Made by a program: the position numbers and the translations under genes. The notes beneath the pieces were generated by a model. The model searched no databases and had not been told where the DNA came from. It saw nothing but the letters and a program-made list of their open reading frames with translations. This document shows, in pieces, positions 2,582 through 16,195 of a stretch of 64,000 nt of DNA. The DNA is taken from sequence record OQ921332.1, one strand, 5' to 3'. Position 1 is the stretch's first letter. Each line of letters begins with the position of its first letter. This DNA is from Escherichia phage vB_EcoP_PAS59.

Positions 2582-2612
2582 AGGCTAGATTCTTAGCCTT
2601 GCTCTTTAATAA
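2582..2612 (+). promoter_or_regulatory. Hairpin (AGGCTA/TAGCCT) followed by boxA-like TGCTCTTTAATAA (2600-2612)
   Basis: 12/13 match to E. coli rrn boxA TGCTCTTTAACAA; hairpin-then-boxA order as in rrn leaders. Confidence 0.6.
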
Positions 2613-2666
2613 TTCGATTAGTGTATCTTGATAAACTCCCAACCATGCCATAATGAGGATTTATCA

Positions 2667-2867
2667 ATGAACGTGTATACCTTCTCAAGCAAAGACACGC
2701 AAATCACTTGCACTAGCATTAACGTTACTAACATGATTATGAGAATAGTCGGTAGTACATTACAGCAGGCAAAAGAGATGGTAGCCGATGCCGATAAAGG
2801 CAAAGCTATTGCGGTGTTATCGCTGGTAAGTACGGATAAAGATTTAACCTTTAAACGTATGAACTAA
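2667..2867 (+). CDS. Hypothetical early protein (66 aa)
   Basis: ORF 2628..2867; ATG 2667 after GAGGA. Confidence 0.55.
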   Translation: MNVYTFSSKDTQITCTSINVTNMIMRIVGSTLQQAKEMVADADKGKAIAVLSLVSTDKDLTFKRMN

Positions 2868-2929
2868 GGTAAGGTTAGCGGCCTTAACGGTCGCTAGTTT
2901 ATCAAGATGCATTAATCGAAAAATAGTTG

Positions 2930-2957
2930 TTGACACATCGAATCATTATGATAAGAT
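2930..2957 (+). promoter_or_regulatory. Promoter P1: TTGACA-16 nt-TAAGAT with extended -10 TG; A-tract upstream
   Basis: TTGACA 2930-2935; TGaTAAGAT 2949-2957. Confidence 0.7.
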
Positions 2958-2989
2958 GTTCACACGGTCAGCGATGACATAAAACATCC

Positions 2990-3022
2990 GGCACTTAGTG
3001 CCCCGCTCTTTAACAATTTATC
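2990..3022 (+). promoter_or_regulatory. Hairpin GGCAC-TTA-GTGCC followed by boxA CGCTCTTTAACAA (3004-3016)
   Basis: 12/13 match to rrn boxA; GCTCTTTAACAATTTATC (3005-3022) matches the E. coli rrn leader as I remember it. Confidence 0.7.
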
Positions 3023-3089
3023 GTCTTGCCCTTTCGCAAAGATTCACGCGAGATAAGGGAAGAGAATAAAAAGAAGACGATAAAAAGAG

Positions 3090-3117
3090 TTGACAAGGTG
3101 AAACGTTCTGATAGAAT
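3090..3117 (+). promoter_or_regulatory. Promoter P2: TTGACA-16 nt-TAGAAT with extended -10 TG
   Basis: TTGACA 3090-3095; TGaTAGAAT 3109-3117; A-tract upstream. Confidence 0.7.
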
Positions 3118-3140
3118 GTTCACTAAGCAGTAAGAAACAC

Positions 3141-3153
3141 CGCTCTTTAAAAA
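3141..3153 (+). promoter_or_regulatory. boxA variant CGCTCTTTAAAAA
   Basis: About 17 nt downstream of the predicted P2 start; 11/13 match to rrn boxA. Confidence 0.5.
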
Positions 3154-3256
3154 TATGAATCAGAAAGTTAAGCGCAACCGCTTACAATCTTGTTAATCCA
3201 ATGCGTGATTAACTGGTCATTCGAAAGAATAGACGAGAAAAAGATTAAAAAAGTGG

Positions 3257-3285
3257 TTGACACGCTAAACAGGATGATTCATAAT
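3257..3285 (+). promoter_or_regulatory. Promoter P3: TTGACA-17 nt-CATAAT
   Basis: TTGACA 3257-3262; CATAAT 3280-3285; A-rich upstream. Confidence 0.65.
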
Positions 3286-3338
3286 GAGCACTCACTAGAC
3301 AACTAGTGAAACGCGAAACCACGGCGAACGGTGGCGGG

Positions 3339-3379
3339 AGGTGAGAAAGCACCTCGATAGATTTACCGCTCTTTAACAA
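3339..3379 (+). promoter_or_regulatory. Hairpin AGGTG-AGAAAG-CACCT followed by boxA CGCTCTTTAACAA (3367-3379)
   Basis: 18-mer CCGCTCTTTAACAATTTA is identical to the copy at 3003-3020. Confidence 0.7.
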
Positions 3380-3439
3380 TTTAAACTTCTTCCTATATCG
3401 GTTGAACATGGCGAGCAATAATAACCATTGCAAGCTATG

Positions 3440-4185
3440 CCAGATAAAACGATGTAAGGCGCTCTAAAATATCAGAGGAAACCGCTTTATAATCCCTTAC
3501 TGGAAACGACACCACTGATAAATGAAGTTATTGAGTACATGCAAGGCTTAAGCTAATCGCCTACGGTTAAAGGGTAGCGGCGGCGGTGCTAGTAAAGTGC
3601 TACAATAATAGACGTTTATCGGGGTAGTCAAGTCCGACGAATTAACGCTCAATAGCGAGCGGCGGGAGGGGGTTAAAGAGTAGCAAATTGCTATTTAACA
3701 ATAAGGTTTAAGCGTGAGTATTTACTAAGTGAGTGTTTTGATACACATCAATAGCGATGTGAGTACATAAACATGTAGTGTAGTAAATCGTGAGAGAGAT
3801 AATCAAACGCCAAAGTATCAGGCGGTCAATGACTCTTTACCATATGCTTTCCCTTAGTAGGCGATAAGCAGGTTTAGAGAGTTGATATAAAAGGGTATCA
3901 CGAAGCGAAAGCAAAGTAGATAGTAATGCCATCGGCTAGAAATTTAGCTAATTAGAGATGGACGCGCTTGCCTTATTGTGATGATTGATCATCGCTGGCA
4001 AATCGGCTTTGTTTATAGCGATTAGTTGAATCCACCAGATGAAACATCACGGCAAGTTAGGCGGCAAGGTTAACTCCTGATAAGACCGCCTGATTTACCA
4101 CTGGTTACTAATGGTTAGTGATTAGTGTTAAGTCATAGTGACTTGAATAGCCCATAGAGGGCGGCGCATAGTGCGTTTATAATTG
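3440..4185 (+). ncRNA. Long untranslated leader or non-coding RNA (~750 nt) downstream of the promoter/boxA array
   Basis: No ORF of 60 aa or more on the + strand; internal repeats (3565-3610 vs 3671-3706); 11-nt long-range complement 3817-3827 / 4084-4094. Confidence 0.45.
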
Positions 4186-5101: not shown

Positions 5102-5119
5102 CCTATAATAAAACACATG

Positions 5120-7584: not shown

Positions 7585-7744
7585 GTTTACCACTGGTAAC
7601 ACTGTTCGCCTTGTTGGCGGTACTCAAACAGGTGTTATTCGTCGGAGAACAACGATTGATGGTGTTCTCTGTTATCTTGTTCAGTGGAATGGTGAGTCTT
7701 CTCCTTCCTTCGAACGTCGTACTGATTTGGTGCTAGTCAAATGA
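7568..7744 (+). CDS. Small protein (58 aa), SH3/KOW-like pattern
   Basis: Internal ATG of ORF 7382..7744, overlapping the end of the previous gene. Confidence 0.45.
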   Translation: MRSKVKFTTGNTVRLVGGTQTGVIRRRTTIDGVLCYLVQWNGESSPSFERRTDLVLVK

Positions 7745-7974
7745 AGATAAACTTCGAAATCATCCCAAAGGTTAAAGAAAAGCAGCTAATCTTCAGTGAT
7801 CTCTCTAACGGGGATATTTTTAAATTTAAGAATGTTGATGCTGATACTTATCTTTGGATGAAAATTGACAAACGGTCTGCCATGAAGTTAAGTGACACTT
7901 CTGACATCACTGATGTATTTATCCATTCTGAAGTCTCTAAGTACAAATACAAAATTATCATTGAGGGTAAGTGA
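7741..7974 (+). CDS. GDxF-family small protein, paralog a
   Basis: LSNGDIFKF motif shared with 6 other ORFs. Confidence 0.65.
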   Translation: MKINFEIIPKVKEKQLIFSDLSNGDIFKFKNVDADTYLWMKIDKRSAMKLSDTSDITDVFIHSEVSKYKYKIIIEGK

Positions 7975-8204
7975 TGAAAATTAATCTCTTCTCTGTAGTT
8001 GTTACTAAAAAGCTCAGTGAGTTACGTCCGGGCGATGTATTCCGTTTACCGACTAACTCTGAAAATGTCTACCTAAAGACAGACACTAGACTTAACGATA
8101 TGCATCGTGTGGTTGGTCTTAGTCAGGGGACACTGTTCCAATTACAGGAAGACCATGAAGTTATCCCTGTACCTGATGTTCAAGTAACTCATATCAATGG
8201 TTAA
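7974..8204 (+). CDS. GDxF-family small protein, paralog b
   Basis: LRPGDVFRL...GLSQGTLFQL...VIPVP; closest to 13948..14199; TGATG overlap. Confidence 0.7.
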   Translation: MKINLFSVVVTKKLSELRPGDVFRLPTNSENVYLKTDTRLNDMHRVVGLSQGTLFQLQEDHEVIPVPDVQVTHING

Positions 8205-8335
8205 GTAACATCGACTTATAGCCCTTGTGTTTATCAGAGGGCTATGTGAGGGTGTTCCTCAATTAACTATAATCTCAACGCCATATGGCTCACCGCTAGG
8301 GCGAGACTTGTCTCAAACATCCGGTGATAGACTAA
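8205..8335 (+). ncRNA. Conserved structured non-coding element, copy A
   Basis: Aligns with 14197-14335; hairpins at 8218-8245, 8247-8261, 8280-8289 and 8303-8314 show compensatory changes between the copies. Confidence 0.5.
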
Positions 8336-8510
8336 AACCTGTTAATTTTCGAACAGCTTTCCGATATGTAGGGGTATGTATCGGTTTGGGATAGAGAACA
8401 ATCTAGGGGTAGAGAGTTCTCGACAGTTAGTACAAGCGGAAGCCTTAACGTGTAGGGCTTCCCTTTATATTAACTGGCAAACCTGCCTCCACCAACAAAG
8501 AGAGAACGAT

Positions 8511-8651
8511 ATGAAGAAGACAACCAAACGTATGAACCGTCCTGAACGTATGGATGCAGTAGCAAATGGTGCTCTGAAGATTGAGTCTGCCATGCTTCGT
8601 CTGACAACTAACATCCGTAAGCGTCAAGGTGATTGGTTCTACGGTGGATAA
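8511..8651 (+). CDS. Small basic protein (46 aa)
   Basis: Internal ATG of ORF 8376..8651 after AGAGAGAA; terminator follows. Confidence 0.45.
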   Translation: MKKTTKRMNRPERMDAVANGALKIESAMLRLTTNIRKRQGDWFYGG

Positions 8652-8660
8652 TTAATAATG

Positions 8661-8690
8661 GGCTGCCCTTCGGGGTGGCCTTTGTTGTTT
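8661..8690 (+). terminator. Rho-independent terminator
   Basis: GGCTGCCC-TTCG-GGGTGGCC followed by TTTGTTGTTTT. Confidence 0.7.
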
Positions 8691-8734
8691 TAATTAAGGG
8701 ACAACTCTTAATTAAACTAACAAGAGAGGTTGAT

Positions 8735-8986
8735 ATGTTCAATCGTTTATTTGACCGTAAAGGTCGCACTGACATACTGATACCCTCTATCGGTGTGCCA
8801 GCTAAGTTCGGTGAGATACGTGCTGGTGATTTCTTCATGGAATCAGGTCGTCTTCATCTGAAGATTAATCTTGAACACGCTGTAGAAATCCTCAGTGATG
8901 ATAAGCCAATCATTGGCACTTCGGTGTACAGTGCAAACCATACTGTATTTGTTGTCAACGTCCAGATTGAGATTAAAAAGCCATGA
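8735..8986 (+). CDS. GDxF-family small protein, paralog c
   Basis: ATG 8735 after AGAGAGG; IRAGDFFM motif. Confidence 0.6.
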   Translation: MFNRLFDRKGRTDILIPSIGVPAKFGEIRAGDFFMESGRLHLKINLEHAVEILSDDKPIIGTSVYSANHTVFVVNVQIEIKKP

Positions 8987-9291
8987 CAATTTCATCTTCA
9001 ACTCGCTGCAATCCTAATGTAGATATCCGTGCTCAAATGTCTAAGATGCCCGGTGTTACTCATTTAGAGTTCACCTACAGTCACTCGCGGTATGAACCGG
9101 GCTTTACTGTGGTAATAAAATCTCCGTGGTTAACAATGACATTGTTCTCGGATGAAGTTGAGAAGGCGGTGAATGGTATTAAGTCAGGCGGACTTAAACT
9201 TTTATCCACTGAACTGGCTGATGAGTTCATGCCTCTTATCCGTAAAGGTGTGGCTAAAATGAACAAAATGATGGAGGCTGCAAAGCAATGA
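8983..9291 (+). CDS. Hypothetical protein
   Basis: ORF, ATGA-coupled. Confidence 0.6.
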   Translation: MTISSSTRCNPNVDIRAQMSKMPGVTHLEFTYSHSRYEPGFTVVIKSPWLTMTLFSDEVEKAVNGIKSGGLKLLSTELADEFMPLIRKGVAKMNKMMEAAKQ

Positions 9292-9542
9292 CAAACTTCC
9301 GAGCAGCAGTTATTACGAAAGTAATAGCAGTTGGTGATGTAATGATGCAAGTTCCTCTGAACACTCGTTACATTGCCATTGACCGAATGGGTTATGTGTG
9401 GGCTTGGAAGTGGAAGCCTACTTACAATGAACTGTTCGACGAATACCAGTGCGCTGGGCCTTACATGCCAACGTTGGTTGGTGTGTATGAAGACGGTCCT
9501 TGTCGTACTCCTCAGTTAATTGAACTACCGGCGTGTGCTTAG
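9288..9542 (+). CDS. Hypothetical protein
   Basis: ORF, ATGA-coupled. Confidence 0.6.
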   Translation: MTNFRAAVITKVIAVGDVMMQVPLNTRYIAIDRMGYVWAWKWKPTYNELFDEYQCAGPYMPTLVGVYEDGPCRTPQLIELPACA

Positions 9543-9543
9543 T

Positions 9544-9708
9544 ATGATTAAATGGTTCAAGCGTCTTGTGCATCTGCATGATTGGGTAATCCTTGAAAAA
9601 TATACGCTGAAGATTACTGACGATCACGGTGGGACAAAGCACAAAGGTCTTCGCTATATTATGCAGTGTAAAGTGTGTGGTCATGTTACCAAGCGTGACA
9701 TGATCTAA
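9544..9708 (+). CDS. MIKWFKRL/CKVCG small protein, tandem paralog 1
   Basis: Internal ATG of ORF 9520..9708; MIKWFKRLVHLHDW...CKVCGHVTKRDMI. Confidence 0.6.
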   Translation: MIKWFKRLVHLHDWVILEKYTLKITDDHGGTKHKGLRYIMQCKVCGHVTKRDMI

Positions 9709-9717
9709 GGGATCATT

Positions 9718-9882
9718 ATGATTAAATGGTTCAAGCGTCTCTTTCATTTCCATGAGTGGGAAGATCTTTCTACTTATGAATTGACGATCACAAATAAACT
9801 TACTGACAGAGAGCGACAAGGGTTGCGTATCTACTCTCGCTGTAAAGTGTGTGGTCTGCACAAGAAAACAGATTTGATCTAA
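9718..9882 (+). CDS. MIKWFKRL/CKVCG small protein, tandem paralog 2 (54 aa, below the ORF-track cutoff)
   Basis: My translation: MIKWFKRLFHFHEWEDLSTYELTITNKLTDRERQGLRIYSRCKVCGLHKKTDLI. Confidence 0.6.
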   Translation: MIKWFKRLFHFHEWEDLSTYELTITNKLTDRERQGLRIYSRCKVCGLHKKTDLI

Positions 9883-9890
9883 GGGGTGTT

Positions 9891-10100
9891 ATGTTCTTTC
9901 GTAAGAAAAAGCCCGAAGATTCTGGATGTAAACATGAATGGGTGGTCACTGAAAACTTACATATCACTCACGCTAAAGACACTCCAGTAGAGAGAAAAGA
10001 ATCTCGTGTATCTCGCATCTGTAAACACTGTTTGAAAATAGAACAGCATAAAGTTCCCGGTCATATCGGTCATGATGTGGCCTTGCGTATTTTCAGTTAA
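9891..10100 (+). CDS. Related CxxC small protein, tandem paralog 3
   Basis: Internal ATG of ORF 9849..10100; ...CKHEW...ICKHCLK. Confidence 0.55.
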   Translation: MFFRKKKPEDSGCKHEWVVTENLHITHAKDTPVERKESRVSRICKHCLKIEQHKVPGHIGHDVALRIFS

Positions 10101-10109
10101 ACAAATCCA

Positions 10110-10185
10110 GCACCCTTAGCTCAATGGACAGAGCAGCGACCTTCTAAGTCGTTGGTTACAGGTTCGAATCCTGTAGGGTGCACCA
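10110..10185 (+). tRNA. tRNA-Arg (anticodon UCU), CCA encoded
   Basis: Acceptor stem GCACCCT/AGGGTGC, anticodon stem GCGAC/GTCGT, loop CTTCTAA, T-arm GGTTCGAATCC, 3' ACCA. Confidence 0.9.
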
Positions 10186-10203
10186 ATCAACGTAGGAGGG
10201 TTT

Positions 10204-10344
10204 ATGACCCCTGAGTTTAATGAGTGGTTCGATGATATCTTTACTTCTCCTTTGTTCAGCGAAGAAGAAAGAGAAGAACTTAAAACCTACCTATGGATGG
10301 CTTGGCGAGATAGCCGCCGTAAGGCGCTTCAGGAGGGATCATGA
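10204..10344 (+). CDS. Small protein (46 aa) with ELKTY.W.AWRDSRRK motif, paralog 1
   Basis: My translation: MTPEFNEWFDDIFTSPLFSEEEREELKTYLWMAWRDSRRKALQEGS; paralog at 11879. Confidence 0.55.
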   Translation: MTPEFNEWFDDIFTSPLFSEEEREELKTYLWMAWRDSRRKALQEGS

Positions 10345-10667
10345 GCTGGGGTGGTGTAATTACCTTAACCTGTATCTTTATCGCCTGTGTAGCTCTTACA
10401 GGCTGTGTACAGCATCGTCCTGATGGGTGGTGTGCATTATCTGTAGAAGGTGTCTGTGTTTCCCGTTGGCATAGTGGGGAGAAGGTTCCTAGCGGTGAAA
10501 TTGATATGCGTTATGCTGGCGCTTCTTGTTCTAATGGCGGTGCTGTTGACGAGAAAGCTTATGCAAAACGTGACATGGAAACACAAGGTGATTGGTCACG
10601 ATACGACTTCATCTCCCGTGGTGTACAGTGTAGTGGCTCTGTGACAACAACAGGTAAGGAGTGGTGA
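10341..10667 (+). CDS. Predicted lipoprotein
   Basis: Signal peptide with lipobox VALTG/C; ATGA-coupled. Confidence 0.7.
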   Translation: MSWGGVITLTCIFIACVALTGCVQHRPDGWCALSVEGVCVSRWHSGEKVPSGEIDMRYAGASCSNGGAVDEKAYAKRDMETQGDWSRYDFISRGVQCSGSVTTTGKEW

Positions 10668-10668
10668 T

Positions 10669-10923
10669 ATGTCTAGTCATTATTCTGATACGAAAGCTTT
10701 ACTGGAAACAGCGGCTCAGACTTCATGCCAACAGCAAGTAAAAATGTTGTTGGTTGATATTCGTAATCTGCGTTGGCTTATCAAAGAAGGTCATATCGGA
10801 AACGCTGCCTATTACAACGTTAAAGATATCCTTCGCCGCCAGCACTTTCTTATCCACGGAAACGTGGTCACTCGCAACTATCAGTGGAATGGTCAATGGT
10901 TACAGCAGCGTATGTCCTCCTGA
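10669..10923 (+). CDS. Hypothetical protein
   Basis: ORF with GGAG upstream. Confidence 0.55.
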   Translation: MSSHYSDTKALLETAAQTSCQQQVKMLLVDIRNLRWLIKEGHIGNAAYYNVKDILRRQHFLIHGNVVTRNYQWNGQWLQQRMSS

Positions 10924-11150
10924 TTTATGTTATTGGTTGGTGGTTAGCAGCCATCGTAGTTAAGTGGTGCTTCAAAACCAATACATTCTATAACTTCTTC
11001 CACAACCCGTGGAGTGGTAAGCCTGATGAATATTCTATCTGGATAGTAATATTCTTCTGGCCTATTTTGTTATTATTCCTCTTACTCATCCCTTTCATGC
11101 TCCTGTTAGGGTGGGTGTTGGACAAGATGACAATCTTTATTATACATTGA
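10884..11150 (+). CDS. Two-TM membrane protein, paralog 1
   Basis: LLIYVIGWW...IVIFFWPILLLF; similar to 11622..11870; start uncertain. Confidence 0.55.
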   Translation: MEWSMVTAAYVLLIYVIGWWLAAIVVKWCFKTNTFYNFFHNPWSGKPDEYSIWIVIFFWPILLLFLLLIPFMLLLGWVLDKMTIFIIH

Positions 11151-11248
11151 AAGAAAGGATTAATAAAACCCACTTCATCATGTATGGTCGTACTAGAAGT
11201 TATATCAAGTATGACTTTTGGAACTCTTACTACGGTTAGGATGTTATT

Positions 11249-11470
11249 ATGAAACTGAATTCTAAACAGTGCCTTAAAACTGTTGAACTATCCTCCCTCT
11301 CTAATGGGGATGTTTTTGGGCACGATAAACATTTCTGGATTAAAACAGATTTCTTAAATGACGGGTACATCACCTGCGTCAATCTTTGGAATGGTTCGGT
11401 AGATGGTTATCGCCCTAGTGCACAAGTGGTTCCTCAGCCTGATGCAAAGGTTGTAGGTTTAGTCTACTAA
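11249..11470 (+). CDS. GDxF-family small protein, paralog d
   Basis: LSNGDVFG motif. Confidence 0.65.
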   Translation: MKLNSKQCLKTVELSSLSNGDVFGHDKHFWIKTDFLNDGYITCVNLWNGSVDGYRPSAQVVPQPDAKVVGLVY

Positions 11471-11479
11471 GGAATTCAT

Positions 11480-11653
11480 ATGGCTTGCTATGGTGGTGGT
11501 GAAGTGTGTGACGATGATGACATGGAATCCAACGGAGAGTGCCCTGACTGTGGGTGTGAGACGTGGAATGGTGTGTCAGTATATCCTGCCTGTAGTTATT
11601 CACCAGTGATTTGTAAAACATGTGGAGATCAACCTTGTGATCAGTCCTGTTAG
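11480..11653 (+). CDS. Cys-rich small protein (57 aa)
   Basis: My translation: MACYGGGEVCDDDDMESNGECPDCGCETWNGVSVYPACSYSPVICKTCGDQPCDQSC; 12 Cys. Confidence 0.45.
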   Translation: MACYGGGEVCDDDDMESNGECPDCGCETWNGVSVYPACSYSPVICKTCGDQPCDQSC

Positions 11654-11870
11654 TGTGTTAATAGTCTACCTGATAGGTATTGTGTTAACCTCAGCTCTGA
11701 TAAAATTCCTTGATGTAAAAGGTAGTGTCGAGTTCAGAGGATGGGGTAACGAACCAAACCTATCAAAGATAGCAATTATAGTTTTTCTATGGCCCATTGT
11801 TGCTGTGATGTTTATATCCCTTTGCTTGTGGGCAGGGCTGTGGGGTTTCATTCTTCCTAAAAAGGAGTAG
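11622..11870 (+). CDS. Two-TM membrane protein, paralog 2
   Basis: LIVYLIGIV...IIVFLWPIVAVMF; start uncertain (GTG options). Confidence 0.55.
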   Translation: MEINLVISPVSVLIVYLIGIVLTSALIKFLDVKGSVEFRGWGNEPNLSKIAIIVFLWPIVAVMFISLCLWAGLWGFILPKKE

Positions 11871-11878
11871 GGGTATTT

Positions 11879-12010
11879 ATGACTAAAGAATTTTTAGAGT
11901 GGTTTGGAAATACCTTCAAAGAATATCTATTCTCTCCAGAAGACTTTGAAGAGCTGAAAACCTACACTTGGTTGGCTTGGAGAGATAGCCGACGAAAAAT
12001 GAATAAGTAA
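11879..12010 (+). CDS. Small protein (43 aa) with ELKTY.W.AWRDSRRK motif, paralog 2
   Basis: My translation: MTKEFLEWFGNTFKEYLFSPEDFEELKTYTWLAWRDSRRKMNK. Confidence 0.55.
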   Translation: MTKEFLEWFGNTFKEYLFSPEDFEELKTYTWLAWRDSRRKMNK

Positions 12011-12305
12011 TATCGTGAAGGACTCTTACGAGAGTCCTTTGAGATAGGACTTCAGATCTTCTATCAAACTAACTTTCACGTAACTAGCCCATAAGGGCGT
12101 TACCCTTCAATAACCCAGCCCACTAAGGGGGCGGGAGTTTAGTGCTGGAAAAGCATAACGCTTATCCTACAAAGGCAACCGATTGTTAGATCTTACATGC
12201 AATATTAATTAATAGGATATGGGAGGATTCGTCCCCTCCCCCTATTTATGAAAGCATTCTCCCGAGAGTTCTCTCATAAATTGGTCCATAACTAAAGGTG
12301 GTAAA

Positions 12306-12560
12306 ATGAAAGTTAACAAACCAGCCAGTAAGAACGCAATACCACTCAGCGCTCTGCGTCTTGGGGATTGCTTCATGTACCCTAACAGTGAAGATGGTGA
12401 TTTGTATATCTTACTGTCTACAGAGTTCTCCACTCGTTTGTGCATTAAGGGTGCGGACGAGCACAGACTTGTAGCCTGTCTTAACACAGGCCGAGCGACA
12501 GCTCCTCGTAAAGATGTTGCTGTTATTCCTATTAAAGCTGAAGCAACTATTAAGGAGTAA
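12306..12560 (+). CDS. GDxF-family small protein, paralog e
   Basis: LRLGDCFMY motif; AAAGGTGG RBS. Confidence 0.65.
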   Translation: MKVNKPASKNAIPLSALRLGDCFMYPNSEDGDLYILLSTEFSTRLCIKGADEHRLVACLNTGRATAPRKDVAVIPIKAEATIKE

Positions 12561-12563
12561 GCA

Positions 12564-12827
12564 ATGGCTCTGACCATTAACAAAACTCGTATTGCGGATA
12601 TTCCTCTAATGGTGGCAGGTGTTTCTATCGGTTCTTTCTTTACTTTGAAAGAAGATAAAGAACAAACCATTTACATGAAAGTGAACAAAAGCTCTAATGG
12701 TTGTGAATACCACCGAGCTGTGTCTGTGCAGAGTGGATACGTTCGTAATATGGCATCCAATATGCCAGTTGGTGTTGTGTTTGAATCAGCAACTCTGGAT
12801 TTAGTGGAGAAGATCAGTGAAACATAA
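12564..12827 (+). CDS. GDxF-family-like small protein, paralog f (divergent)
   Basis: SIGSFFTLKED...YMKV pattern. Confidence 0.55.
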   Translation: MALTINKTRIADIPLMVAGVSIGSFFTLKEDKEQTIYMKVNKSSNGCEYHRAVSVQSGYVRNMASNMPVGVVFESATLDLVEKISET

Positions 12828-13074
12828 AGACCATCCAAAGTATGTATCGCTATTGGATGCAGCCCTTCTCTGCACGTACTGGCTCCTTATTGTTATTGGG
12901 GTTGTGCTAATGATATGTGGTGTCGTACAGTTCTTTATGTATCTGCAAAGCGTGTTAGATACCACATTAGCTAACACTATAATCCTTGCAATTCTCGGTG
13001 TTATTGCTTTCTGTGTGATTGTCTTCTTCGTTTGGTTATCTATGAACGACGACTCTACACACACCTTCTATTGA
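12817..13074 (+). CDS. Membrane protein (2-3 TM)
   Basis: Hydrophobic segments LLCTYWLLIVIGVVLMICGVV and ILAILGVIAFCVIVFFVWL. Confidence 0.6.
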   Translation: MKHKDHPKYVSLLDAALLCTYWLLIVIGVVLMICGVVQFFMYLQSVLDTTLANTIILAILGVIAFCVIVFFVWLSMNDDSTHTFY

Positions 13075-13273
13075 CAGGAGAAAATCAGTGAGAAAACGTG
13101 CCTACTCTGAAGAAGAAATGGTTAACTTGAAAGGCTTCGGTCAACGACAGCCTGACGGTTCAGTTATCTGGTACATTAACGGACAGAAAAAGGCAAGTAA
13201 ATAAGCCCTCTTCTCTCCTCCTTTTAACTACTATGACGCCTCTCTTTTCGGCGCTGTTTTGGAGCTTCAAAAA

Positions 13274-13687
13274 ATGGCTGGGAAATTCCCCAACGTAAGC
13301 AAGAAATTGGCTTACCTCACGTATAAAGAAAACATTGATCTTCTGGTCAAGCTTTATCCGGCTTCATTCAACAAGCAATTCCCTCTTCCTTTGGAGCTTA
13401 ACATCCATAAGGAAATAGCCCGTAAGACCGGTTGGTCAGCGGAGAAAACAAGCATGGTGCTCAACATCTGGACTACTCGTATGGAGTATGTGATGATGGC
13501 CTGTAGCACTGGTAAACGCTTCAAGCTGCACTCTGTAGCTATGAAGATTCGTAGCCCTATCGACCCTGAGCCGATGGCTGGGTTCAGTAGCCGTTTGAAA
13601 TCTTTCCGTGATCGTGGTCGTGTAGTGAAATTCAAGCATGACTTCTCTTACAAGTTTGGATACGAAGCGTTCCAATTTGTTGTTTAA
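13274..13687 (+). CDS. ProQ/FinO-domain-like RNA-binding protein
   Basis: LVKLYPASFNKQFPLPLELNIHKEIARKTGWSAEKTSMVLNIWTTRMEYVMMACSTGKRFKL aligns by eye with the ProQ N-terminal domain (FP.cF....PLKIGI..dl....s...lr.al..Yt....Y......g..R.dL). Confidence 0.55.
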   Translation: MAGKFPNVSKKLAYLTYKENIDLLVKLYPASFNKQFPLPLELNIHKEIARKTGWSAEKTSMVLNIWTTRMEYVMMACSTGKRFKLHSVAMKIRSPIDPEPMAGFSSRLKSFRDRGRVVKFKHDFSYKFGYEAFQFVV

Positions 13688-13714
13688 TCTCTCTTTAAAA
13701 TAAGGTAATAAAAC

Positions 13715-13948
13715 ATGTCTAAAGTTAGCGCAATTGATGCCATCCGTCAGCCGTTCCAGTTCCAGTCTAAATCAACTCAGACCCACAGCGAACCTAAACA
13801 GATTCGTCTGGGCGGTACAGAGAAGACTGTATTTGATATTGCGAAAAACAAAAGCGTAACCATCGTCGAAGGCGGCGAACTGGTTAATGTTTCCCACCGT
13901 ATTCGCACTGGCAAGACTGCCAAAGATCGTGCTAAGAAAGGTTTGTAA
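13715..13948 (+). CDS. Hypothetical protein
   Basis: ORF; AAGGTAATAAAACATG. Confidence 0.6.
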   Translation: MSKVSAIDAIRQPFQFQSKSTQTHSEPKQIRLGGTEKTVFDIAKNKSVTIVEGGELVNVSHRIRTGKTAKDRAKKGL

Positions 13949-14199
13949 TGCAAATTTCCAATAAAACACCTCCTGAGCCTACTGTTCAAGTAAAAGATAT
14001 GACACCGGGAGATGTGTTTCGTTCGGTTGAATATCCGGGGGAATTCTTTATCCGAACCCCTTCTGCCTCTGTTGATGGTGTCACTAAGCCGGTAACAGCA
14101 GTTCAGTTGAGCACAGGTCATCTCTTCCGTTTAGAGCTTGACATGGCAGCTATTCCTGTTCCGACAGCAATCCTCCGCTTCGACGGAGACACAGAGTAA
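13948..14199 (+). CDS. GDxF-family small protein, paralog g
   Basis: MTPGDVFRS...LSTGHLFRL...AIPVP. Confidence 0.7.
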   Translation: MQISNKTPPEPTVQVKDMTPGDVFRSVEYPGEFFIRTPSASVDGVTKPVTAVQLSTGHLFRLELDMAAIPVPTAILRFDGDTE

Positions 14200-14335
14200 C
14201 ATCTATAGCCCTCGTGAGTATCAGAGGGCTATGTGAGCTATTCTGGCTCAACTAACCTAATCTTAATTTAATCTTACCCGTATGGGGCCGATGCTAGGGA
14301 GAGGAACAATCCTCAAACATCCGTCGGATAGAATA
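14197..14335 (+). ncRNA. Conserved structured non-coding element, copy B
   Basis: Aligns with 8205-8335; hairpins at 14205-14232, 14234-14250, 14277-14286 and 14301-14314. Confidence 0.5.
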
Positions 14336-14395
14336 TTTTAAGAGCAGGTTATCCACAGATATTGGGTGATATCTATTTAATTGGCCTTAAAGCTT

Positions 14396-14420
14396 GGCTC
14401 TCTTAGGAGAGTCCTTTTTT
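14396..14420 (+). terminator. Rho-independent terminator
   Basis: GGCTCTC-TTAG-GAGAGTCC followed by TTTTTT. Confidence 0.7.
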
Positions 14421-14440
14421 AAGTTCAAAGAAGAGGTTGT

Positions 14441-14608
14441 ATGGATAATAAGTTGAAAGCTAAATTCTTATTGGCAGCAATCTTTATTTGCTTAGCCACT
14501 GTAGGGTTTGTCAGGATGTACTCTTTTGCATCTTGTGAATTAAGCAAGAATGATAGAGGGTCTTACAACTGGCTAACCAATCAATGTGACAAACAGGAGA
14601 AGTTATGA
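14441..14608 (+). CDS. Small membrane or exported protein (55 aa)
   Basis: My translation: MDNKLKAKFLLAAIFICLATVGFVRMYSFASCELSKNDRGSYNWLTNQCDKQEKL; ATGA overlap with the next gene. Confidence 0.45.
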   Translation: MDNKLKAKFLLAAIFICLATVGFVRMYSFASCELSKNDRGSYNWLTNQCDKQEKL

Positions 14609-14967
14609 ACCTACGCCCCATTAAAGGCCATGTGAACCTGTCTACGCTTCATAAAGTAGCAAATGATTTAGGTGGTATGGATGAGAATGATTTGGAGCAG
14701 AATTTGCTCTGGATTGCTAATGGCATCAAGGCGGCAAAGGCCAAAATGGCTCGTGCACAAGGTAAACTAAAAGCGAATAAATATCTTATTCGTCGTCGTA
14801 ATGTCTTGCCTCAGGATGTGGTGAGTTTAGCTTTATCGGGATATAAAGCGGCAGAGTTAGAACTTCAGGAAGCTGAATTTGAAAAGATGCGCTTCCAAGA
14901 GAACTATCGAAACTTCCGTAGTATTGACTACATTCGCAAATCTCTGGGCCTTCTGGTATCAGAGTAA
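14605..14967 (+). CDS. Hypothetical coiled-coil protein
   Basis: ORF; GGAGAAG RBS. Confidence 0.65.
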   Translation: MNLRPIKGHVNLSTLHKVANDLGGMDENDLEQNLLWIANGIKAAKAKMARAQGKLKANKYLIRRRNVLPQDVVSLALSGYKAAELELQEAEFEKMRFQENYRNFRSIDYIRKSLGLLVSE

Positions 14968-14977
14968 AGAGGTAAAA

Positions 14978-16195
14978 ATGTTCCCTGTAACACTTCAAAG
15001 CTGGAAAGAATCAGAAGACGTTGTAACTGTTTGGCCTCCTTGTTATGGTTTCCTGAAAGCAGGTTACTATCAGGGTGGTGATTATGATGAAGATGAAGAT
15101 GGTTATCCTGACTACTACAACGCATATGACAGCAATTTTGGCTGGAATATCCGTATTAAGGTGTGGAGTGAGGGTATGATGGTTCGTCAAGGCACTGCTG
15201 AAGAGAATGTTCTCGAAAACATGATGCCTATGTCCGAAATCAAGTACATCTGGAACTCTGGTACACACCTTCCCGCTTATGGTGTAAAACGTTATGGCGA
15301 TAAAGAGCCTATTACCACTCAGTATTTCCGCGAAGGGTTGGAGAATGGAGACCCTCGTCCTCCGTCTCATGTAGAAACATGGGCAGAAGAAAACAACCGT
15401 CCTGATATTACTGATCGCGCTGTAATGGAAACCTTTGAAGCATTCATGGATAAAGACCTCGATTCATGTCTGGTGTGGCATGAAGCAGGATTCATGGGTG
15501 TTTGTACTGATGGTTGTCCTGCTGATCGCGCTCTGTTCTATCTGATGCTGAATCGCACATTCTATACAGATGATGAAAAATCTGCTGTGTATGAAATGTT
15601 GAACAAGATGTATAAGAAGGGCTGGTCTCCTTTAGCCTCTCTTGCATTCAGCCGACTGATCAACTCTTCAGTGGATGTGTTCGGTAACGAACGTGTTGCT
15701 TTAACAGGGAATGATTACGATTCCTGTATCTTCCAAGCATCTCTGTATACAGTGGGTGTTGGCAGTACAATGGTTGAACCTCGCCAGACCAAGTGGCGAC
15801 AGTGTGAATACACCGAAGGTGAAGGGCATCTTCGTGATGAAGACTTCCCCAGTCTGCTCTACCGTAGTGAAGGTGTGCGAGACTGTCGAGTGAATAACTC
15901 AATGTTCTTACCAATCCTTCTTCCTCAGTATTGCAATCTGCCGAATGGTGAACGTCCGGTCATCACAGAGAAGTCACTCTTGGTTGAATTTATCCGAGAA
16001 GTAGCTGAATCTGAAACATCTTTTGATAAAATTGTGTTCGGTTATAACTGGAACAATGAAACAGCTTCAGCTCGAAGCTACAACACGTATAACATTATCA
16101 GTAGTATGTCCAATGGACTGACAGGTAGTAATTATACAGTACGTCCCTCAGAAGAGTGGGAAAACATTTTGGAAAAATTATTCTTCAATAAATAG
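14978..16195 (+). CDS. Conserved protein of the amidoligase operon (405 aa), unknown function
   Basis: Internal ATG of ORF 14879..16195 after AAAGAGG. Confidence 0.75.
   Translation: MFPVTLQSWKESEDVVTVWPPCYGFLKAGYYQGGDYDEDEDGYPDYYNAYDSNFGWNIRIKVWSEGMMVRQGTAEENVLENMMPMSEIKYIWNSGTHLPAYGVKRYGDKEPITTQYFREGLENGDPRPPSHVETWAEENNRPDITDRAVMETFEAFMDKDLDSCLVWHEAGFMGVCTDGCPADRALFYLMLNRTFYTDDEKSAVYEMLNKMYKKGWSPLASLAFSRLINSSVDVFGNERVALTGNDYDSCIFQASLYTVGVGSTMVEPRQTKWRQCEYTEGEGHLRDEDFPSLLYRSEGVRDCRVNNSMFLPILLPQYCNLPNGERPVITEKSLLVEFIREVAESETSFDKIVFGYNWNNETASARSYNTYNIISSMSNGLTGSNYTVRPSEEWENILEKLFFNK

Follow-up and report, generated by a model that had tools for sequence, protein, structure and literature searches.

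We describe here a folded RNA domain of about 135-155 nucleotides (nt) in untranslated intergenic gaps of the Escherichia phage vB_EcoP_PAS59 (sequence record OQ921332.1), of which a stretch of 64,000 nt (the window) was analysed. Two copies, A and B, form one RNA family with five shared helices, P1-P5 (Table 1). The domain is structured, specific to one strand, conserved among related phages and fixed in its position between genes. Tentatively, we suggest a role in cis: the domain may be a platform for docking, through which read-through or the formation of 3' ends is controlled. According to BLAST searches against phage genomes, the window belongs to a Gordonclarkvirinae podophage, a phiEco32/SU7-like coliphage with Suseptimavirus SU7, Bas86, Bas87 and 4E8 as its nearest relatives, and the element sits in the early, rightward-transcribed region of small genes. 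Nothing in Rfam 15 overlaps the core of either copy, at the gathering score or at E<=10; the sole match in the window at the gathering score is a tRNA-Arg. A weak STnc100 match (14324-14425, 21.2 bits versus a cut-off of 47) takes in the last 14 nt of copy B, the spacer and the terminator. The element resembles the orphan "motif" RNAs of Rfam in being phage-associated and defined by covariation and conservation only, but differs from them in matching none of the 4227 models. The open-access literature on phiEco32-like phages contains no description of this RNA, nor of the boxA sequences discussed below. The element is a new, previously undescribed RNA family, and its probable mode of action falls within known kinds, those of a cis-regulatory leader or a 3' untranslated region (3'-UTR) RNA.

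The 5' part of the element consists of the hairpins P1 and P2, followed by an A/U-rich linker. In the 3' domain, the tiny hairpin P3 abuts P4, which leads via a 7x7 internal loop to the apical hairpin P5. The enclosure of P5 by P4 is found in the minimum-free-energy folds of both copies, and the loop, with the strands CUAGGGN and RAACAUC, is almost invariant. P4 comprises 5-7 base pairs (bp) and P5 3-5 bp, together 8-12 Watson-Crick pairs. A first-pass annotation of this DNA, made by reading the letters without database searches, had described the blocks GTAACATC, TATCAGAGGGCTATGTGAG, CTCAAACATCCG and GATAG as common to both copies, and four hairpins with identical or compensated stems. Blocks and hairpins are present as described, but P4 (in both copies) and the B-type helix P6 had been overlooked. 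The two copies are real. Through P6 the RNA of copy B reaches past 14335, and copy A is followed by two conserved hairpins. In the whole window there are exactly two occurrences of the 16-mer CAGAGGGCTATGTGAG.

P6 pairs the linker (UAACCU..UCUUAA) with the 3' tail (UUAAGA..AGGUUA). It appears in the minimum-free-energy folds of all B-type and Salmonella-type copies and in the RNAalifold prediction, with compensatory changes at three pairs of P6b. By this pairing, P6 is predicted to close a three-way junction in the B type. A closing helix for type A (AUUAAC/GUUAAU) was rejected, as it pairs in SU7-like copies and is not kept in phiEco32 itself.

Table 1. Coordinates of the RNA element and associated features in the window
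Feature	Position	Strand	Remarks
Copy A core (type A)	8205-8336	+	sequence, fold, covariance models, pair counts
Copy A P1	8217-8225/8238-8246	+	
Copy A P2	8247-8251/8257-8261	+	
Copy A linker	8262-8279	+	
Copy A P3	8280-8282/8287-8289	+	loop AUAU
Copy A P4	8290-8295/8322-8327	+	UCACCG/CGGUGA
Copy A 5' internal-loop strand	8296-8302	+	CUAGGGC
Copy A P5	8303-8306/8311-8314	+	
Copy A 3' internal-loop strand	8315-8321	+	AAACAUC
Type-A extension hairpin H-a	8361-8384	+	CCGAUAUGUA-GGGG-UAUGUAUCGG, UAGGGGUA loop; RNAalifold
Type-A extension hairpin H-b	8394-8421	+	second UAGGGGUA loop; RNAalifold, 4 pairs with compensatory changes
Terminator-like hairpin after copy A	8438-8462	+	weak tail CUUUAUAUU; scan; stem covaries among relatives
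Copy C (putative degenerate paralogue)	12007-12124	+	R2 19.7 bits, E=0.018 over the whole window
Copy B (type B)	core 14196-14337; with P6 14196-14351	+	sequence, folds, covariance models
Copy B P1	14204-14212/14225-14233	+	
Copy B P2	14234-14239/14245-14250	+	
Copy B P6 (closing helix)	14253-14258 + 14261-14266 with 14338-14343 + 14346-14351	+	
Copy B P3	14277-14279/14284-14286	+	loop GUAU
Copy B P4	14288-14293/14322-14327	+	CCGAUG/CGUCGG
Copy B 5' internal-loop strand	14294-14300	+	CUAGGGA
Copy B P5	14301-14305/14310-14314	+	
Copy B 3' internal-loop strand	14315-14321	+	AAACAUC
Perfect DnaA-box consensus	14349-14357	+	TTATCCACA; overlaps 3' strand of P6
Small hairpin	14357-14374	+	AGAUAU-UGGGUG-AUAUCU, G-rich loop; fold; between copy B and terminator
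Intrinsic terminator	14396-14420	+	7-bp stem, 4-nt loop UUAG, U6 tail; scan

The conservation of the fold is seen most directly in paired changes. In an alignment of 34 distinct sequences, which was fitted to the structure model, standard pairs occupy 97.7% of the cells at the 29 base pairs. At 19 of these pairs both sides have changed, a count that none of 500 shuffles reached, and the compensatory double changes span six or seven lineages, with strong covariation in P4. The covariation score is 0.395, versus 0.139 +/- 0.010 for the shuffles and at most 0.089 for slid controls. Because the alignment had been fitted to the model, RNAalifold was also run on a plain MAFFT alignment of ten B-type and Salmonella-type regions, and this unfitted run recovers P3, P4, P5, P6 and the terminator. 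Two covariance models were used: R1, built from 15 B-type sequences and a hand-drawn structure, and R2, built on a widened alignment. Copy A scores 64.6 bits (E about 2e-12) with R1, a model that holds B-type copies only, and 108.6 bits with R2, while the covariance-model scores of copy B are 154 and 138.5 bits. Copies of other lineages are recovered by the B-only model as well, the paired changes exceed all shuffles and slid controls, and the suggestion of the first-pass annotation that selection acts on RNA structure rather than on coding or primary sequence is borne out.

G-U pairs in P1, P2 and P4 are found for the + strand only. As they would be A-C mismatches on the opposite strand, the folded strand is the + (mRNA) strand. 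The indels between copies A and B have lengths that are not multiples of three, and no open reading frame (ORF) of at least 40 amino acids runs across copy B. Between Suseptimavirus and Kuravirus, the nucleotide identity of the element is 85-89%, against a mere 61% and 41% for the proteins encoded next to it. Small ORFs overlie the element in the record of Klebsiella phage Asterion (an annotated coding sequence, L056 2654-2812) and, as a mechanical ORF, at the equivalent place in the window (8227-8394); in other records, "hypothetical protein" features lie under the element in the hit tables. These ORFs are probably spurious, and those in several GenBank records can now be corrected.

A position pair within the internal loop, N7/R1' (the last nt of the 5' strand and the first of the 3' strand), covaries as well, with C.A in 13, A.G in 16, A.A in 3 and C.G in none of the sequences, and both states are present within the B lineage and within the Salmonella lineage. 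By isostericity rules, this would fit a sheared-type pair stacked on P5, beside G.A pairs; the internal loop would be a rigid, non-canonical helix segment.

Among phage records, 98 hold copy A and 97 hold copy B, at two places per genome, and the two downstream marker proteins are present in 97 records each. As the counts for the element about equal those for the marker proteins, the element is essentially universal in the Gordonclarkvirinae (roughly 97-98 records), in line with the presence in syntenic relatives on which the first-pass annotation had staked its claim. The Salmonella phages 7-11, SE131 and pSal-SNUABM-01 (Grimontviridae) carry one B-type copy in the syntenic place, and Citrovirus phages (of Klebsiella, and Citrobacter phage CVT22; Zobellviridae) have one copy each. 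R1 finds all A copies, the Salmonella copies and the locus L042 (56.5 bits), and also the Klebsiella phages Asterion (30.8 bits, E=3e-5) and Klyazma. With R2, the CVT22 copy, on which this model had not been trained, is recovered in the syntenic place (35.5 bits, E=5e-6). In the Citrovirus copies, the internal loop has degenerated and the remaining fold is kept.

Exact-pattern scans of the element core in IMG/VR, metagenomes and GTDB genomes yielded only phiEco32-like and 7-11-like contigs, plus L042 as an outlier. This locus (JBOFGJ010000684.1) is labelled as a Flavobacterium metagenome-assembled genome (MAG), which would suggest a very wide host range. Its genes match CVT22 and Klebsiella Citrovirus phages, so that the label is regarded as a binning error and the wide host range is ruled out. 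L042 is a Citrovirus/CVT22-like phage sequence, and L043 (CALKAR010000070.1), labelled as a Peptococcaceae MAG, is a Kuravirus sequence; both are probably binning contaminants in the GTDB MAGs. The pattern hits L005, L013, L023, L028, L033, L040 and L041 lie in coding sequence or lack the helices and were taken as chance matches, as were all 10 new loci that a relaxed pattern (TATG..GCTAGGG..AACATCCG) found in IMG/VR. Erwinia phage Pecta and the marine oyster-associated phage L058 have no copy of the element. Cronobacter phage GAP52 has no full element and only a P1-like hairpin (CUAUAGAG...CUCUAUGUG, L059 11716-11803, - strand), upstream of an ATP-grasp gene. Possibly this hairpin is what is left of the element; alternatively, P1 may exist as a module in its own right.

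The first-pass annotation had counted only two copies, but the window appears to contain a degenerate third. Copy C is a weak match, backed by the shared layout. Its start coincides with a stop codon (GUAAU), and P1, P2, the linker (ACUAAC) and P3 (GCCC-AUAA-GGGC) are retained. GUUA-8nt-UAAC stands in place of the P4/internal-loop/P5 domain, and the invariant internal loop is gone. On the 3' side, copy C is followed by a hairpin (12221-12240) and then a gene at 12306. The syntenic gap of phiEco32 holds an equivalent (L002 5037-5154, 16.7 bits with R2).

The features around the element come in a fixed order: stop codon, element, hairpin or terminator, ribosome-binding site of the next gene. In the lineages examined, P1 starts about 8-17 nt past the stop codon of the upstream gene, which the GUAAC block often includes, and A, B and C each have a terminator-like hairpin 60-110 nt further downstream; one also follows the 7-11 copy. 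The intergenic gaps contain no match to a sigma70-like promoter or to the gp36 promoter TAATGTATA, and the gap of 20 nt in B has no room for one. The ORFs upstream of A and B (7971-8204 and 13948-14199) had been described as similar GDxF genes, and they are indeed paralogues (34% identity, E=4e-8). The implied tie of the element to these genes fails in relatives: the upstream gene varies even among close relatives, homology starts exactly at GTAAC, and the homology blocks run from the element into the downstream genes, with the upstream genes swapped. Tiny paralogous early proteins with a (K)GDxV/F motif are encoded in the window (7741-8204, 13948-14199) and in L042 (1978-5668). Many of those in L042 end in EEENE, with overlapping ATGA stop/start codons, and one has a weak SH3-like / L21e Pfam match. 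Elsewhere in the window, a direct repeat of 75 nt (72% identity, 9543-9617 / 9717-9791) marks the starts of two adjacent small ORFs, which look like tandem paralogous genes.

Downstream of the element, an amidoligase / COOH-NH2 ligase / GATase / ATP-grasp (RimK-like) module is present in three of the phage lineages examined. In the window it occupies 14441-16195 and onward, and it is syntenic in L003, L056, L057, L058 and L059, downstream of the element's position across Gordonclarkvirinae, Grimontviridae and Zobellviridae, the position in CVT22 being deduced via a homologue of a 446-amino-acid neighbour protein. Homology between the downstream proteins of roughly 440 amino acids in L042 and in the window was considered and dismissed, as they share no similarity. 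The location upstream of a metabolic module in three phage families raises the question of whether the element is a small-molecule riboswitch, in which a metabolite or ion would bind to an aptamer made up of the invariant loop and the junction and thereby control the downstream terminator. The layout recalls that of an aptamer: covarying helices frame unpaired nucleotides that do not vary, and a terminator and then a gene come next. In the B and Salmonella types, the arrangement is that of an attenuation riboswitch, with a U6 terminator and a start codon 20-40 nt later, whereas the hairpins of A, C and the Citrovirus copies have weak tails. We consider a riboswitch improbable. Not even at E<=10 does any Rfam riboswitch model match, no overlapping expression platform was found on inspection by eye, with the terminator 60-110 nt away, the loop is degenerated in Citrovirus copies that keep the other parts of the fold, and the immediately downstream genes differ between the families.

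RNAalifold on 8 A-type sequences extends type A by the hairpins H-a and H-b, whose loops show a UAGGGGUA motif (8369-8376 and 8404-8411), the exact motif being present at 8404-8411. A hairpin related to H-a (AUAUGUAGGUGUAG) is present in L042. The Citrovirus copies resemble type A in continuing with one or two UAGGGGUA-loop hairpins: the motif is the apical loop of the downstream hairpin of the Klebsiella Citrovirus phages (L056 about 2831-2838) and has a near match in L042 (about 3170). UAGGGGUA echoes the CUAGGG of the core loop, and the repeats may mark several sites at which a single factor binds. Considered as a motif for pairing, UAGGGGUA shows no enrichment in the genome, and nor does its complement. 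In the Klebsiella Citrovirus phages, an extended -10-like sequence, TGaTATAAt, lies between the element and the downstream hairpin (L056 2789-2800; L057 about 2808-2820), and the hairpin may be a 5'-UTR structure rather than a terminator.

The terminator-like hairpin after copy A is long, with a weak U/A tail, and the next gene starts at 8512. After copy B, a scan confirms the terminator that the first-pass annotation had placed there, with the G+C-rich stem-loop and U-run of an intrinsic terminator. Its stem is conserved with compensatory changes, the loops of the relatives being UUCG or GAAA, and the start codon at 14441 lies 20 nt past it. The small hairpin upstream of this terminator is kept in Kuravirus and absent from 7-11.

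The sequence TTATCCACA, a putative DnaA box at the end of P6, is the only perfect match to the DnaA-box consensus in the window, and is invariant in 10 of 10 aligned B-type and Salmonella-phage copies. An inverted box with one mismatch (14440-14448, - strand) overlaps the next start codon, so that the two DnaA-like boxes bracket the terminator. The element could then have its role at the level of DNA, as an origin-related or DnaA-controlled site or as a recombination anchor between gene cassettes, with RNA structure secondary. The invariance of the box across two families and the mosaic boundaries exactly at the 5' edge of the element would agree with this. Nevertheless, we regard it as very improbable. 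The compensatory changes and the one-strand-only G-U pairs argue for single-stranded RNA, copy A lacks a DnaA box, the GC skew gives no origin signal near the box at 14 kb, and recombination anchors need no covarying helices.

The boxA sequence GCTCTTTAACAA is found, with 0-1 mismatch and on the + strand, at 2601-2612, 3005-3016, 3142-3153, 3368-3379 and 3690-3701. Two of these sites are perfect and three have one mismatch, and the leader that holds the cluster is non-coding and about 1.3 kb long. Upstream of at least four of these sites there is a sigma70-like early promoter (TTGACA at 2932, 3091 and 3258; TTGCAA at about 2515), and a small hairpin usually precedes the boxA sequence. The motif is present in every related locus that reaches its promoter region, Citrovirus phages included. 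Such rrn-type boxA sequences downstream of early promoters imply that the early operon is built for Nus-dependent processive transcription or antitermination. In SU10, sigma70 early promoters lie between CDS120 and 121, and the early genes are CDS69-125 (PMC4281155); in 7-11, no sigma70 early promoter was predicted between genes 151 and 99 (PMC4331800). With the early promoters far upstream, RNA polymerase must pass the element sites in order to express the downstream early genes. Long untranslated structured inserts of the early operon are A, C, B and the tRNA-Arg (10110-10185), which, being located within the operon, must itself be excised from the transcript.

If the element acts in cis as a docking platform, it would be transcribed inside the long sigma70-driven early operon by the host RNA polymerase, and the invariant loop and the junction would form a docking surface for a conserved factor. 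This factor might be RNA polymerase, a Nus factor or some other host protein, or else an early protein of the phage. Its binding would decide the fate of transcription at the hairpin or terminator 60-110 nt downstream: the polymerase would either read on into the conserved genes beyond or terminate, with formation of a 3' end, by a logic comparable to that of nut or put sites, or of a protein-dependent attenuator. We infer both the binding partner and any effect on termination. A cis role is favoured because inheritance links the element to the spacer, terminator and genes on its downstream side and not to the upstream gene, because each junction carries its own copy (A, B and the degenerate C), because the polymerase must pass these sites, because the conserved part is a three-dimensional motif and not a pairing seed, and because an operon with boxA is already built for processive antitermination.

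Several observations weigh against a platform in cis. By inspection by eye only, no conserved alternative pairing between an antiterminator and the terminator could be demonstrated; the complementarities seen in this way are short, of low complexity (UAAGAG/CUCUUA) and not conserved in 7-11. A canonical intrinsic terminator is present only in the B and Salmonella types, the hairpins of A, C and Citrovirus copies having poor U-tails, and according to the scan, the strong early-region terminators at 5119 and 6613 have no element upstream. As boxA already provides a mechanism for processivity, a second one is less needed. The relatives GAP52 and Pecta do without the full element. Finally, a stable RNA with its 3' end at the terminator would fit this anatomy too.

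The element can be compared with the put sites of phage HK022 and the nut sites of phage lambda. In all these cases each genome has a pair of paralogous copies that differ by compensatory changes, the transcribing enzyme is the host RNA polymerase, and the sites lie in an early operon, upstream of terminators to be passed. Moreover, the operon of the element has boxA, as nut sites and rrn leaders do. There is, however, no homology in sequence or structure, put having been compared by description and not by model score. A put site is a double hairpin of about 70 nt and a nut site consists of boxA and a 15-nt boxB, whereas the element has 5-6 helices with an invariant 7x7 loop and no two-stem-loop of about 70 nt. 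The nut arrangement of boxA beside boxB is not seen within the element, since all boxA sequences lie at 2601-3701 and none in A, B or C, and the linker resembles boxA only loosely. No N-like protein was identified for the element. The element also differs from put and nut in lying many kilobases from promoters, right after stop codons, and its effect on termination is putative. In its most specific form, the proposal would be that of a new class of RNA that acts on the elongation complex together with boxA and Nus, the loop docking RNA polymerase or a Nus factor so that the polymerase passes or stops at the terminator. We think this rather unlikely. If true, the element would be only the second RNA family, after HK022 put, to reprogram bacterial RNA polymerase in cis, and the terminator so gated would separate variable host-takeover genes from conserved downstream genes.

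The platform in cis is only slightly favoured over a released stable RNA, and the two readings fit nearly equally. It is possible, if somewhat doubtful, that a stable non-coding RNA is freed from the early polycistronic transcript and acts in trans, as a probable ligand of a ProQ/FinO protein or as a decoy for a host protein. A cut near the stop codon would provide the 5' end and the terminator the 3' end, for a product of about 225 nt (B) or about 260 nt (A). The highly structured 3' UTR ends in a conserved terminator that has a stable loop (UUCG or GAAA) and a U6 tail, and a structured RNA that ends in an intrinsic terminator with a U-tail is the typical anatomy of ProQ/FinO ligands (review PMC9977716). 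This anatomy is seen in copy B and the Salmonella-phage copies and weakly in A. The same genome encodes a FinO-domain protein: the ORF 13259-13687, about 500 nt upstream of copy B, had been called ProQ/FinO-like, and just reaches the Pfam threshold (27.2 bits versus a cut-off of 27). Such genes are present in Gordonclarkvirinae and Grimontviridae, with Pfam ProQ matches for 7-11 gp122 (36.8 bits) and pSal-SNUABM-01 (30.6 bits). The co-transcribed tRNA-Arg also needs excision, boxA signals are typical of operons with untranslated stable RNAs, UAGGG(G) is displayed three times in type A, as in protein-sponge RNAs, and paralogous copies are common among small RNAs. In contrast, release would require processing (putative), as there is no conserved upstream promoter, and the element lacks a long conserved single-stranded seed. 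None of eight proteins examined from the regions of L042 and CVT22 gave a Pfam ProQ match. U-tails are missing from the hairpins of type A and of the Citrovirus copies, and other parts of the genome show no enrichment of TAGGGGTA or of its complement. The known 3'-UTR RNAs of ProQ/FinO proteins (FinP/FinO, Inc/FopA, RaiZ/ProQ) are likewise structured, located 3' of a coding gene and ended by an intrinsic terminator, with a FinO-domain protein encoded nearby on the same mobile genome. Unlike these RNAs, the element has no cis antisense target or evident seed, and it is far larger and more elaborate than FinP or Inc. It differs from these RNAs also in that no ProQ-like gene was found beside the Citrovirus copies, and its binding by such a protein is putative.

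Several paralogous, covarying elements with an internal loop, located between the early cistrons of a lytic podophage, also bring to mind the RNase III sites of T7 (R0.3 to R1.3). The element might accordingly be a module for the processing or stability of mRNA, with a host RNase cutting in or near it and the remainder protecting the upstream or downstream message. An A/U-rich linker adjoins stable hairpins, and the downstream hairpins of Citrovirus and type A are long, irregular and abut the ribosome-binding site. However, classical RNase III substrates have roughly 20 bp, and P4 and P5 together fall well under this. The element is multi-branched, its helices are too short for a classical substrate, and no quasi-continuous hairpin of about two helical turns, as in T7, is found. 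Further, 14 strictly conserved loop nucleotides exceed the usual needs of a cleavage site. Cleavage is putative, and we judge this explanation unlikely.

The phiEco32-like phages are a model for sigma-factor takeover, and this large and well-supported structured RNA opens unexplored ground in the RNA layer of their early program. The element outlasts the protein genes beside it, is shared by three families of phages that infect Enterobacteriaceae, and is placed where variable immediate-early genes meet conserved downstream genes. For a branch of the FinO family that is still uncharacterised, it would be a concrete candidate ligand. Whether it turns out to be the gate of a terminator or the partner of a ProQ/FinO protein, it would allow a new RNA-based control mechanism to be studied in E. 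coli, where such work is tractable.

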